Below, piece by piece: positions 24,001 to 27,000 of a DNA stretch of 58,707 bases. The stretch's first letter is position 1, and every line of letters begins with the position of its first letter. Origin of the DNA: an archaeon (lineage in GTDB: Archaea > EX4484-52 > B79-G9); NCBI GenBank assembly GCA_043813875.1, contig JBDRKP010000067.1:1-58707 (forward strand), given 5' to 3'. The position numbers were made by a program.

Positions 24001-27000
24001 ATCTTGCCCCTCTGAAACAACGTCTGCTGAGCAAGGCTCGTACCGAAAAACTCCACAAGATGCTTCTTTGTCCTCGCATCGCTCGCATTTGTCTCAATCA
24101 GATGATAATTCAGTTCACGCGCAATCGCCTGCACCATGCTAGTCTTTCCACATCCCGCAGGACCTAAAAGCAAAAGCCCTTTTTTCAGCTGATTCTTATT
24201 CCATTTCCGGACCCAGTCAAATACCTTGACCTTCTCTTCACCCACGACATCAGAAACATTTTTCGGCCTGTATTTTTCAGTCCATCCACCTGTTGGCTTC
24301 ATACATGATATTGGCATCTTATTTTTAAGTGCTTAATGACCTCTATCGGCAAAGCGCATAAAATACATATATAAAATCAATCAACAGAATAACAGAATAC
24401 ACAAAATGAAAGATCAGTCAATTAAACCCCAAAAAAATATACAACACAGAATATATATCCGGACACAAAAGAGTTTATATAGATTGGAGACACATATATC
24501 AGTACAACACCACATCTAGTGGTTTGGCAGGAAAATCACTACTATATATAGACGCCATATCATCCTTGAGGAGGGGAACCATTTGAAATGTCCGTACTGT
24601 TCATCTAGTGAAACGAAGGTCTTGGATAAAAGATTCACCGAAGATCTTGAAGTGAACCGCAGAAGAAGAGAATGTATCTCATGCAACAAAAGATTCACGA
24701 CCTACGAGAGGATAGAGACACACCCATTATTGATCATCAAAAAAGACGGCTCAAGACAGGAATACGACAGGAACAAGATCCTAAAAAGCATCCTCGTATC
24801 ATGCCAGAAAAGACCCATAAGCCAGGAATCCATTGAAAGGATCGTAGACGAAATCGAAAGCGAACTGCTGCACTTGGACACCCAGGAAGTCGAGAGCAAA
24901 AAGATCGGTAACCGCGTAATGAAAAAACTCAAGACATTAGATGACATTGCATACATCAGATTCGCATCTGTCTACAGGTCCTTCAAAGACATAGAATCAT
25001 TTGAACGCGAACTGCACAAGCTGAAAGTCGTAGGAGAGACGCAGAATACAGGCTCTGACTCAACAGACATACTCTTACAGGTCACAACAACATCAGAGGG
25101 AAAAATAAGCGAATGGAACAACGAGCGCATCGTAAGCGCCCTCATAAGAGAGATCAGGATCCCGCGCGACGAAGCCATAGAGATAGCCGATGCCGTTGAA
25201 AAAAAAGTATTCTCATCCGGGATCAAGACAATATCCGTGAGCCTCATACGCGAACTTGTAGACATAGAACTATTCACCAGAGGCTACGACAAGAAACTGG
25301 AAAAACAGGGAATCATAGGGATGCCCCATTATAACTTAAAACAGCTGATATTCAACAAAAGCAACGAAAACAGCAACGTAGCTGCAAACAACCCCGAAGC
25401 AGTCAACCTGGCGATCGCAGAAAACACACTGAAGCAATACGCACTAAAAGAACTATTCTCAGAAGACATATCCTCAGCACACATGAAAGGCGCAATCCAC
25501 CTGCACGACCTCGGATACCCGATCCGCGTATATTGCAGCGCGCACAGCCTCGAATACATAAAGAAATACGGCTTGAGGCTCATCAACCTCTCAACCACGT
25601 CAGCCCCGGCCAAACACGCAGGAACACTTACAGGCCACCTGAACACATTCCTCGCATCCATGCAAGCATACTACGCAGGCGCCCTCGGGATCAGCTACGT
25701 GAACATATTCTACGCGCCATACCTTGTAGGCATGAGCTACGAGAAGATGAAACAGGAAGCACAATACCTGATCTTCTCATGCAGCCAGAACGCGTTCTCG
25801 CGCGGCGGCCAGACATTGTTTATTGACTTCAACATACACTTAGGGATTCCAGGATATCTCAAAGATGTGCCGGCTATAGGCCCTGGCGGCAAATACACAG
25901 GAAAAGTCTACGCTGACTACGAAGAGGAAGCCCAGCAATTCGCAAAAGCGCTTCTAGACGTCTGGCGGGAAGGCGACGGCGAAGGCAAGCCATTTCCTTT
26001 CCCTAAATGCGACCTTCACGTAGACAAGACAACCTTCAGCGACCCGAAACAATACGAACTCCTGAAATACGCATGCCAGATAGCCTCAGAAAACGGCTCA
26101 CCATACTTTGTCTTCGACAGGGACGAAATAAACCTCTCCATGTGCTGCCGGTTGAGGACAAAAATAGTCGACGACTACGTAATCAAACACCCGGAAAGCA
26201 TGAGATTCTGCGGCTTCCAGAACGTAAGCATAAACCTGCCCCAGGCCGCCTACAGGGCTGGAAAAGGCAACCTTGAAGGCACAATATCTGAACTGCACAA
26301 AGCAATGAAACTTGCGGTAAAAGCCCACATACAAAAAAAGAAATTCATACAGAAACTGATGAGCGTCCCGGGCGCACCCTTGTGGCAGGTAGGCCAGATC
26401 GCCCCCGACGGCAGGCCATACATCGACCTTGAGACAGCCACCTACATACTAGGCATCATAGGACTCAACGAATGCGTAAAATATATAGTTGGTCAGGAAC
26501 TGCACGAATCAGAAGAAGCATACAGGACCGGCCTGAAAATAATCTCTGCCATGTACCTCAGATGCAAGGAATTCGAAAAAGAATACAGCCTGAAATTCAC
26601 TCTCGAAGAGACGCCCGCAGAAAGCGCATCCTTAAGGCTCGCAAAAATCGACCTGAAAGAATACCCCGAAAGCAAAGACTACATACGCGGCAACAAGAAA
26701 AAAGGAGAGATATATTACACGAACAGCGTACACTTGGCACCAGACGCACCGGTCGACATCATAGAAAGAATCGAAAGGCAATCCAAATTCAACACACTGA
26801 TCGAATCAGGAGCAATAACCCACGTGTTTTTAGGCGAGCAGAAACCGGATATGGGAAGCGTATTATCTCTGATCAAAAAGACATGGGATAACACCCAATG
26901 CGCACAGATCACAATATCCCCCGAATTCACAATATGCAATGATTGCCATAAACTATCCAGAGGTTACGCAAGAGAACAGAAACCTCAAACAAAGGCCATA

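Follow-up and report, generated by a model that had tools for sequence, protein, structure and literature searches.

The window analysed here is the whole 58,707-nucleotide stretch of contig JBDRKP010000067.1 (assembly GCA_043813875.1) from an archaeon of the GTDB lineage EX4484-52. It contains an open reading frame (24583–27039, + strand) that starts with TTG and encodes 818 amino acids, in which NrdR and a class III ribonucleotide reductase are joined in a single frame. The genes of the operon are arranged in the order nrdR::nrdD(core)–grd–trx–nrdG, and the features of the locus are as follows.

23109–24317, − strand: divergent gene for the replication factor C large subunit (NF003229, 355 bits against a cut-off of 280; Pfam AAA, Rad17 and RFC lid)
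24474–24481, + strand: TATA-like element TTTATATA with a purine-rich AAAGAG before it, a candidate archaeal operon promoter (conserved in six upstream regions of the genus)
24493–24501, + strand: second conserved AT-rich element, CATATATCA here and CCAATATATCA in relatives (upstream alignment of the genus)
24507–24522, no strand: predicted NrdR box 1, ACACCACATCTAGTGG (6/6 key positions; at −76 in 6/6 genus sequences with upstream DNA)
24539–24554, no strand: predicted NrdR box 2, CTACTATATATAGACG (6/6 key positions; same spacing across the genus)
24570–24576, + strand: Shine-Dalgarno-like GGAGGGG, 6 nt 5' of the TTG (read from the sequence; kept in the genus)
24583–25023, + strand: NrdR module, residues 1–147 (TIGR00244 positions 1–147 of 147; match to E. 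coli NrdR in the PDB)
25024–25077, + strand: linker, residues 148–165, with conserved KLKVV and DSTD motifs (alignment A2; dN/dS 0.18)
25078–25347, + strand: degenerate ATP-cone of NrdD itself (Pfam, 29.1 bits at 25093–25296; alignment to P. copri NrdD; hairpin tally)
25366–26964, + strand: class III reductase core (NRDD profile positions 1–519 of 562, 400 bits)
26965–27039, + strand: C-terminal tail of the core, unconstrained, with the TGA stop (dN/dS 0.89 for residues 791–818)
27036–27215, + strand: 59-residue glycyl-radical subunit (NRDD profile positions 517–561, 42.7 bits; aligns to residues 691–735 of P. copri NrdD)
27220–27477, + strand: small thioredoxin/glutaredoxin-like protein with a CPNC motif (Pfam Thioredoxin_3, 31.3 bits; Glutaredoxin, 21.7 bits)
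27474–28181, + strand: NrdG radical-SAM activating enzyme (TIGR02495 NrdG2, 209.1 bits against a cut-off of 131.15)

The genome-wide survey's note had described an NrdR repressor fused to the reductase, and this description holds: one open frame carries both parts, and both NCBIfam matches exceed the curated cut-offs, namely TIGR00244 for NrdR (174.5–179.8 bits against 124.65, over the full profile) and TIGR02487 for NrdD (375.6 bits against 326.35). Pfam places Zn_ribbon_NrdR at residues 1–42 (58.2 bits), the first ATP-cone with its best stretch at residues 50–136 (93.8 bits; 79.6 bits at 24730–24990) and NRDD (PF13597) at residues 262–794. The NrdR module is complete, comprising both the Zn ribbon and the ATP-cone. 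It matches the E. coli NrdR chains in the PDB with E = 4.6e-37 and shares 51% identity over 147 residues with NrdR from a Candidatus Brocadia genome. Members of the NrdR family are free-standing proteins of about 140–220 residues, whereas here the module forms the N-terminus of an 818-residue chain. The start codon of the fused gene is TTG in five sequences of the genus and GTG in one.

The residues expected of a functional NrdR were largely found in the module. The two CxxC motifs of the Zn ribbon (C3, C6, C31 and C34) are each present in 116–118 of 120 fused proteins. Judged by alignment, the residues that contact DNA are all there: R17 occurs in 117 of the 120 proteins, D15 in 106 (with E in a further 12), the RRRR stretch at 26–29 in 117–118 and R37 in 119, while K12 replaces R12 as in E. 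coli NrdR. K53, K65, F127, V130 and Y131 correspond at the sequence level to K50, K62, F124, V127 and Y128 of S. coelicolor NrdR, so that the predicted dATP-sensing residues F127, V130 and Y131 are all retained, and Q59 takes the place of the ATP-contacting glutamate of free NrdRs. Over 21 pairs, the NrdR part gave a dN/dS of 0.080 and the catalytic core one of 0.087.

The fused frame might be a precursor, from which proteolysis frees NrdR or an internal start yields NrdD, so that free NrdR represses in the ordinary manner. The linker is indeed the least constrained region before the tail, and close relatives such as L080 and L085 have a separate nrdR that ends at or just before the nrdD frame. 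However, the linker carries conserved motifs, unlike a variable spacer, no in-frame ATG, GTG or TTG was seen 3' of the AGGAG-like stretch at 25031–25035, and the fusion is retained in 181 database clusters. No cleavage signal is known, and we consider a precursor unlikely.

NrdR boxes have been described with the key positions C4, A6, A8, T9, T11 and G13 and with a linker of 15–16 bp between paired boxes (PMC13584703). As had been proposed from the survey, two boxes are predicted between the TATA-like element and the start codon of the fused gene, with starts 32 bp apart and a linker of 16 bp. The offset of 32 bp stands, but the positions given earlier (about −79 and −47) were measured here as −76 and −44 from the TTG. 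Box 2, which had been taken to be degenerate, is canonical, since the pair matches 12 of 12 key positions. The replication factor C gene forms the upstream limit of the 265-bp control region, and a look for RNA runs containing the locus found none. The AT-rich element at 24493–24501 may serve as an alternative TATA box or as some other element close to the promoter. In relatives CCAATATATCA matches 5 of 6 key positions of a box, but the element of the present genome does not, and it was rejected here as a third NrdR box.

A pair matching all 12 key positions stands at −76 in all five other loci of the genus that have upstream DNA (6/6 including the present one). Across the genus, all 12 key positions are invariant, against 9 of the 20 non-key positions in the boxes and 4 of the 16 in the linker (Fisher p = 9e-5, for sequences that are kin and not independent). 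The genome of 1,637,459 bases holds two perfect pairs, and the only intergenic one precedes the fused gene; the other, at position 9504 of contig C28, lies inside an ORF (8788–9597) and was taken as chance. A position weight matrix for single boxes returned 71 genome sites of at least 11 bits, among which box 1 tied for the highest score, and single boxes are thus too weak a signal for defining a regulon. Outside the genus, a pair with at least 11 of 12 key positions occurs within 300 bp upstream of 26 of 46 nrdR loci (11/21 fused and 15/25 unfused), and the density of pairs is 2.1e-3 per base in these upstream regions against 9e-6 elsewhere. Such a pair at a spacing of 31–32 is absent from 10 of the 21 fused loci outside the genus. 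A spacing of 33 gives a pair in four of these ten (L064, L065, L067 and L072), while L075, L087, L090, L093 and L098 have at most one good box upstream even with relaxed spacing, and the upstream DNA of L100 amounts to only 19 bases.

The ATP-cone of NrdD itself reads VTTTSEG where relatives carry V-x-K-R-D-G. The K-R hairpin is missing in 27 of 27 fused loci of this NrdD subclass; of the 25 loci in which nrdR is a gene of its own, 19 retain the V-x-K-R-D-G hairpin. With the phosphate-binding K-R pair lost from this cone, the NrdR cone is probably the main nucleotide sensor of the chain. The NrdR module might then no longer bind DNA and act only as an allosteric or oligomerisation cone that replaces the degenerate one, the boxes being relics. 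In class III reductases, ATP-cones are known to act as switches of activity (PMC11226230), and in the compact fusion of genome G017 the ribbon sits on a single cone, which must serve the enzyme. The hairpin loss in all 27 loci lends some weight to the caveat of the survey's note that the NrdR part may now be purely allosteric, and the NrdR cone could have been recruited mainly for allostery. Yet the Zn ribbon would be superfluous for a mere cone, and every one of its DNA-contact residues recurs in 116 or more of the 120 fused proteins if either D or E is accepted at position 15. In addition, all 12 key positions of the predicted operator are fixed across the genus while adjacent bases drift, and the genome has no other NrdR that could account for this conservation. 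The hairpin loss would fit a double role of the module as repressor and cone, and does not appear to argue against DNA binding. We regard a loss of DNA binding as quite improbable.

The 818-residue chain had previously been called the reductase chain, but it is not the whole reductase: the glycyl-radical domain is encoded by the separate gene at 27036–27215. The large chain has no such domain (R-V-x-G-Y), and the NRDD profile is divided into complementary pieces, 1–519 on the core and 517–561 on the 59-residue ORF. The small protein contains a second CxxC motif (C14 and C17) and an R-V-V-G-Y loop with G30 at nucleotides 27123–27125, and GAGGGGG at 27019–27025 lies 5' of its ATG. The first CxxC (C785 and C788, nucleotides 26935–26946) is on the core and invariant in alignment A2, so that all four cysteines expected of the metal site exist but are divided between the two proteins; they would share one metal ion. 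No second copy of the glycyl-radical domain was found in the genome. Given that the large chain is devoid of this domain, the 59-residue peptide would be an obligate subunit here.

The core stop overlaps the start of the small gene as ATGA, and both this overlap and a GGAGG-type site are found in 7 of 7 genomes of the genus. The small gene is also kept in G022, a genome of another genus, where it follows a same-frame TAA. In 42 split loci the small gene always starts with ATG, its frame relative to the core is distributed 22/10/10 and the gaps reach 1211 nt. Free homologues of 48–97 residues make up 105 database clusters. The split might be only apparent if the contig was misassembled, or if a programmed −1 frameshift or transcript slippage occurs at the A7 run (27012–27018). 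NrdD would then be continuous, and the small gene does lie in the −1 frame with an A AAA AAA heptamer before the stop in the present genome. However, the A run is missing in relatives such as L035, in which the ATGA overlap and the GGAGG site are retained. Moreover, the junction is spanned, free of indels, by contigs from two other runs, one of which, from another study, shows A>C at 27012. The junctions of the relatives, the mixed frames and the bridging contigs led us to reject frameshifting at the A7 run, and an unreal split is altogether very improbable.

The catalytic residues of the core are the β-A cysteine C318 (in YCSAHS), which aligns with the P. copri NrdD cysteine, and C521, C522 and R523 of the finger-loop motif MCCR (520–523), one of two such NrdD motifs described in PMC9669993; all are invariant in alignment A2. 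The CPNC redoxin is likely the reductant of this MCCR-type enzyme. Neither a class I nor a class II reductase turned up in the assembly, and the fused chain is its sole reductase and its sole NrdR above the cut-off; at a genome completeness of 91.5%, another NrdR or reductase could have escaped assembly. That the chain has lost catalysis and now serves as a regulator, as its stop before the glycyl loop might indicate, is hardly credible in view of the invariant catalytic cysteines and MCCR, the low dN/dS of the core, the missing end encoded directly after the core with its own start, and the NrdG and redoxin genes next in line in a genome with no other reductase found.

A recount among the 42 genomes of the phylum gave, as before, eight with fused frames (814–841 residues; seven of the same genus and G022), to which G017 adds a ninth, compact fusion of ribbon, one cone and NRDD. 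Free nrdR frames of 150–210 residues occur in 14 of the 42 genomes, and none of the eight fusion-bearing genomes has a free NrdR above the cut-off. That fused proteins are numerous in the databases was borne out, although the earlier figure of 229 became 181 clusters (449–1432 residues, E ≤ 1e-10 to the NrdR part). The proposal that nrdR–nrdD operons within the phylum represent the earlier stage has to be abandoned: their NrdD is only 27–31% identical to that of the fused chain, and these operons thus belong to a different lineage and are not the precursor. Nearer unfused relatives (59–70% identity) come from anammox bacteria and from archaea of the Woesearchaeota type. Among DPANN and Asgard archaea, both the fusion and the division into two pieces are common, the separate glycyl-radical gene being widespread.

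From these results, we propose a class III reductase in two pieces, with a complete NrdR at the start of the large chain that would repress the enzyme's own operon, and we give this reading a probability of about two in three. The fusion, the canonical predicted operator pair, the separate glycyl-radical gene and the lack of another NrdR or reductase in the assembly can be read directly from the sequence. Self-repression is the best reading because the chain is the only NrdR and the only reductase, its predicted DNA-contact residues are near-invariant, dN/dS of the NrdR part is 0.08 and the boxes are conserved. When the NrdR cone is loaded with ATP and dATP, the Zn ribbons of four chains, that is, of two reductase dimers, would pair and bind both boxes, at or just 3' of the transcription start, and the operon would be blocked. 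The enzyme level and the dATP/ATP ratio would in this way feed straight back on enzyme synthesis. The 59-residue peptide would be made separately and dock into the core, with the metal site formed from one CxxC per chain, and NrdG would install the radical on G30.

Further considerations count against self-repression. Cells usually contain much more of a reductase than of a repressor, and an 18-residue linker to a large dimer may be hard to reconcile with a four-module assembly like that of free NrdR. A bolder version of our proposal, which is speculative and rather unlikely to hold in full, is that a single sensor serves both controls. With the NrdD cone dead and the NrdR cone in its place, ATP plus dATP would join two dimers on the operator, so that repression would equal enzyme shut-down, and ATP would free the active enzyme; the 59-residue protein would be an inexpensive, exchangeable cartridge that can be recharged by NrdG or replaced after oxygen damage without remaking the 818-residue chain.

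NrdR has been studied as a free bacterial repressor and is reported to be unstable when purified (10.1101/2025.03.28.645925). Its natural weld to the target enzyme offers a stable form for study and a direct test of the coupling among operator binding, ATP/dATP sensing and catalysis. If the proposal is true, the chain would be a rare archaeal example of an enzyme repressing its own gene, at a TATA-type promoter. The radical peptide, as a protein of its own, is relevant to how activases gain access to the glycyl loop and to the possible repair of oxygen-damaged glycyl-radical enzymes, for which a 2026 review names formate lyases as the sole known case (PMC13450708). The annotations "anaerobic ribonucleoside-triphosphate reductase", "NrdR" and "hypothetical protein" mask both the fusion and the split.

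Among known systems, the module resembles free NrdR (TIGR00244; S. coelicolor 7P37/7P3F and E. coli 9FVR/9FXK) in its full-length ribbon and cone, its DNA- and nucleotide-contact residues, and the tandem 16-bp boxes with a 16-bp linker at a reductase promoter. It differs in being the N-terminus of the enzyme that it would regulate, in Q59, in its archaeal host and in boxes that lie behind a TATA-type promoter. The nrdR–nrdD operons of anammox bacteria (for instance Candidatus Brocadia, L097–L135) and Woesearchaeota-type archaea (L076, L080 and L085) share the NrdD subclass, and their nrdR lies directly 5' of nrdD; among the separate-nrdR loci, 15 of 25 have box pairs upstream. In these operons, however, nrdR has a stop codon and NrdD has a canonical V-x-K-R-D-G cone, and in 16 bacterial nrdR–nrdD loci the glycyl-radical domain is within the NrdD chain. 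Single-chain NrdD with NrdG (phage T4 1H78, T. maritima 4COI/4U3E and P. copri 8P23) has in common with the present enzyme the core profile, the β-A cysteine, MCCR, the R-V-x-G-Y loop, two CxxC motifs and an adjacent activase; here, in contrast, the protein is cut between the two CxxC motifs, the radical loop is on a 59-residue protein and an NrdR module is added N-terminally. The full texts and passages searched contained neither a natural NrdR–NrdD fusion nor a split class III reductase, although such architectures might be listed in supplements.

PutA, BirA and NadR each combine, in a single polypeptide, an enzyme with a repressor that acts on the operon encoding it and is switched by a metabolite. 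Their DNA-binding domains come from unrelated folds and they act in other pathways; the literature searched contained no enzyme-repressor case for ribonucleotide reduction. The closest parallel to the separate radical peptide is GrcA/YfiD, an autonomous glycyl-radical spare part of pyruvate formate-lyase, and according to the 2026 review, spare parts are known for no glycyl-radical class other than the formate lyases (PMC13450708). Like GrcA/YfiD, the 59-residue peptide is a small separate protein with only the glycyl-radical loop. However, the enzyme for which GrcA is a backup possesses a radical domain itself, whereas the large chain described here has none.

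The assembly is a 1.64-Mb archaeal genome in 90 contigs (91.5% complete and 0.55% contaminated), and the window, which is one entire contig, carries among its genes those for MCM, ribosomal protein L15e, and the replication factor C (RFC) large subunit. It also encodes, at 6199–14523 on the minus strand, a 2774-residue protein with repeated CarboxypepD_reg-like domains, which is probably a giant surface protein. The class III ribonucleotide reductase genes are arranged as follows.

24583–27039, + strand: fused NrdR-NrdD ORF, TTG start, 818 residues
25093–25296: second, weak ATP-cone of the fused chain (29.1 bits)
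27019–27025: GAGGGGG, preceding the ATG of the 59-codon ORF
27036–27215: glycyl-radical ORF of 59 codons, its ATG overlapping the large-chain TGA stop (ATGA)
27220–27477: thioredoxin/glutaredoxin-like gene downstream of the fused ORF
27474–28181: nrdG downstream of the fused ORF (TIGR02495, 209.1 against a cut-off of 131.15)

The fused chain matches the Pfam profiles Zn_ribbon_NrdR (residues 1–42, 58.2 bits), ATP-cone (50–136), and NRDD (262–794, 400 bits), as well as the NCBIfam models TIGR00244 for NrdR (positions 1–147 of 147; 174.5 bits, cut-off 124.65) and TIGR02487 for NrdD (375.6 against 326.35). Given these matches and the weak second cone, the chain therefore consists, in order, of a whole NrdR, NrdD's own cone, and the NrdD core. 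It is the only protein of its genome with an NrdR match over the cut-off; the next-best match (19.8 bits) is a 282-residue protein encoded on another contig (C80:42044–42892, minus strand), which contains the sole other ATP-cone of the genome. No free NrdR over the cut-off was found in any of the 8 fusion-bearing genomes of the phylum.

In the S. coelicolor NrdR-DNA complex, as described in PMC9110341, DNA is contacted by R12, D15, R17, R26–29, and R37, and the outer nucleotide's 2'-OH is read by F124, V127, and Y128. The fused chain has K12, D15, R17, RRRR, and R37 at the contact positions, and its F127, V130, and Y131 are the counterparts of the three nucleotide-reading residues. Among the 120 fused proteins listed of 181 database clusters, R17 is kept in 117, R37 in 119, R26–29 in 117–118, and the Zn cysteines in 116–118, and position 15 is D in 106 and E in 12. 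The dN/dS values from the 21 pairs among the 7 genus genomes were 0.080 (NrdR part), 0.18 (linker), 0.094 (second cone), 0.087 (core), and 0.89 (last 28 residues); thus, comparing NrdR with the core, the repressor module is constrained as strongly as the enzyme.

[quoted passage not shown] Scored by this published definition, two candidate boxes lie upstream of the fused gene, together with two other conserved elements.

24474–24481: conserved TTTATATA, preceded by AAAGAG, 25 bp upstream of box 1
24493–24501: second conserved AT-rich element
24507–24522: candidate NrdR box 1, 6 of 6 key positions
24539–24554: candidate NrdR box 2, 6 of 6 key positions

The pair thus matches at 12 of 12 key positions with a linker of 16 bp. 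Box 2, which the genome-wide survey's note had regarded as degenerate, is canonical, with every key position matched. Single sites matching the six key positions number 278 in the whole genome and perfect pairs 2, the other of which falls within an ORF of contig C28. A 12/12 pair with equal spacing is present at −76 in all five other genus genomes with upstream DNA; one further (sixth) genus locus has 32 bp of upstream DNA only. Across the six genus sequences, all 12 key positions are invariant versus 9 of the remaining 20 in the boxes and 4 of the 16 in the linker (key versus other positions, Fisher p = 9e-5, which overstates the case because the six sequences are kin). Whichever of the two upstream elements is the TATA box, we infer that the boxes cover the expected transcription start or the very beginning of the transcript. 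In addition, GAATATATATCC (24458–24470), about 115–125 bp before the start codon, is conserved in 6/6 genus sequences and could be a second promoter or belong to the divergent RFC gene.

Outside the genus, a pair matching at least 11 of 12 key positions occurs within 300 bp upstream in 26 of 46 loci with nrdR (fused, 11/21; unfused, 15/25), and pairs are about 230 times as dense upstream as elsewhere in those loci. With relaxed spacing, four Micrarchaeota-type fused loci (L064, L065, L067, and L072) have pairs 33 bp apart (versus 31–32), and fused loci L075, L087, L090, L093, and L098 have one good box or none; the upstream DNA of L100 is too short for boxes to be judged. Some Woesearchaeota-type loci (L074, L077, L078, and L103) have two box pairs, with a spacing of 41 bp in one pair.

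The reductase itself is encoded in two pieces. The large chain matches only positions 1–519 of the 562 in the NRDD profile and stops soon past the first CxxC (C785, C788); the 59-codon ORF bears both the second CxxC motif and the glycyl loop (R-V-V-G-Y), and its product matches profile positions 517–561 (42.7 bits). Aligned to P. copri NrdD, the large chain extends up to residue 687 and the small protein covers residues 691–735; therefore, the cut leaves one CxxC of the presumed four-cysteine metal site on each chain. All 7 genus genomes share the ATGA overlap and have a GGAGG-type site, and in G022, a genome from another family of the phylum, a same-frame TAA is followed by one codon and then the ATG of the small gene. 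An A7 run precedes the large-chain stop in our genome; frameshifting or an assembly error at the junction was rejected, since the run is absent in relatives and a contig from a different study spans the junction with a substitution in the run and no indel. The genome contains no class I or II reductase (0 matches to PF02867) and no NRDD match beyond the two pieces. C318 (the beta-A cysteine) and the MCCR finger loop (C521, C522, R523) are invariant across 49 aligned relatives, and, judged from its sequence, the two-piece reductase is not a dead enzyme.

The canonical ATP-cone hairpin is V-x-K-R-D-G, as in P. copri NrdD; the second cone of the fused chain has VTTTSEG, and the consensus among fused relatives is VSTxTxG. 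Among loci sampled by the radical domain, the canonical hairpin is found in the second cone of 0 of 27 fused loci and in 19 of 25 with a separate nrdR, the N-terminus being shortened in the other six. Since the fused forms group together in the tree, few events may account for this loss. A canonical second cone is present in 35 of the 120 fused proteins listed, and these belong to the other NrdD subclass. In our lineage, NrdD's own cone, the second of the chain, looks dead from its residues, and the NrdR cone would be the main nucleotide sensor of the chain; it could serve both transcription and activity.

We propose that, with ATP and dATP bound, the four NrdR modules of two reductase dimers would pair their ribbons as in free NrdR, and the paired ribbons would occupy both boxes, shutting off transcription at the TATA promoter. 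With only ATP bound, the modules would be off the operator. Because the repressor would be the enzyme itself, the enzyme would directly repress its own operon, depending on the product-to-substrate ratio. The 59-residue peptide would be made by translation coupled to the large chain, join the core via the shared metal site, and receive the radical from NrdG. PMC9669993 links thioredoxin-type reduction with double-cysteine finger loops, and the adjacent redoxin gene is consistent with such reduction of an enzyme with this loop.

Fused proteins with an NrdR part at E ≤ 1e-10 comprise 181 database clusters (449–1432 residues), with record labels including Asgard/Heimdallarchaeota, Aenigmatarchaeota, Woesearchaeota, Micrarchaeota, and Nanoarchaeia. 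A glycyl loop lies near the C-terminus in 23 of the 120 listed; of the 97 without it, about ten represent fragments or proteins fused to other domains. In P0092, P0111, P0113, and P0118, an NrdR ribbon and cone occur with PALP, DHH/DHHA1, Topoisom_bac, or PF03706, and these may be real fusions or gene-calling errors. Free homologs of the small protein (48–97 residues) form 105 clusters, and a profile built from them matched 2331 proteins (E ≤ 0.001) in a set of 1.84 billion representatives; the 150 best matches include 103 of at most 110 residues and 17 of more than 400. Genomes sampled with the radical domain as the sole criterion yielded 80 loci, including 7 from our genus.

Split, NrdR fused: 26 of 80
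Split, separate nrdR: 9 of 80
Split, no nrdR seen: 7 of 80
Unsplit, separate nrdR: 16 of 80, all from anammox or Planctomycetota bacteria
Unsplit, no nrdR seen: 4 of 80
Unsplit, NrdR fused: 1 of 80
Small gene, no core within 3.5 kb upstream: 17 of 80

In all 42 split loci the small gene starts with ATG; its reading frame varies with respect to that of the core (22/10/10), and the gap ranges from a 29-nt overlap to 1211 nt. Core-less free glycyl-radical genes include L068:3888–4165, L095:3885–4228, and those of loci L082, L084, L086, L113, L114, L123, L125, and L133. In Heimdallarchaeota-labelled genomes, such a gene stands in a conserved, reductase-unrelated neighbourhood, with several copies in some. 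In L068 and L095, an 11/12 box pair lies about 113 bp ahead of the gene. Possibly, the core-less genes are true spare parts under NrdR control.

The survey had taken the unfused nrdR-nrdD arrangement within the phylum as the earlier stage, a view that calls for revision. Such operons do exist, but their NrdD is unsplit and 27–31% identical to ours. The G022 core is 69% identical to our NrdD, and both Woesearchaeota-type archaea and anammox bacteria have unfused relatives of our subclass (59–70% identity); in some, e.g., L080 and L085, the end of nrdR falls where the nrdD frame begins or immediately ahead of that point. In a maximum-likelihood phylogeny of 56 cores (midpoint-rooted for drawing only), the label "fused" requires 3 changes (bootstrap range 3–4), and well-supported branches force at least 2 changes; therefore, fusion or un-fusion occurred more than once. 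A separate compact fusion in G017, a genome of the same phylum (L055:1001–2866, the frame running off the contig), joins an NrdR-type Zn ribbon (1–42), a single ATP-cone (52–141), and an NRDD part from the other NrdD lineage, with an 11/12 box pair at −54. Anammox/Planctomycetota loci (within L097–L135) have bacterial nrdR-nrdD operons whose NrdD core is 65–66% identical to ours, which points to operon transfer between domains in either direction.

According to PMC13584703, 22% of archaeal genomes contain NrdR. Neither a natural NrdR-reductase fusion nor a split class III reductase was found in full-text searches covering main texts outside subscription journals, or in passages of PMC13584703, PMC9110341, PMC9669993, PMC11226230, 10.1101/2025.03.28.645925, and PMC13450708. 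The last, a June 2026 review, describes formate lyases as the sole glycyl-radical class with known small spare-part proteins. A distinct class of about 97–100 residues (P0330, P0336, P0343, P0357, and P0369) has an N-terminal domain devoid of cysteines and, after it, an NrdD-type glycyl loop, that is, a GrcA-like layout and not half a Zn ribbon. Names in the public records are "anaerobic ribonucleoside-triphosphate reductase," "transcriptional regulator NrdR," both combined, or "hypothetical protein." PutA and BirA are enzymes that repress their own operon, and therefore the principle of a self-repressing enzyme is not new; the NrdR-NrdD fusion would be another variant of it.
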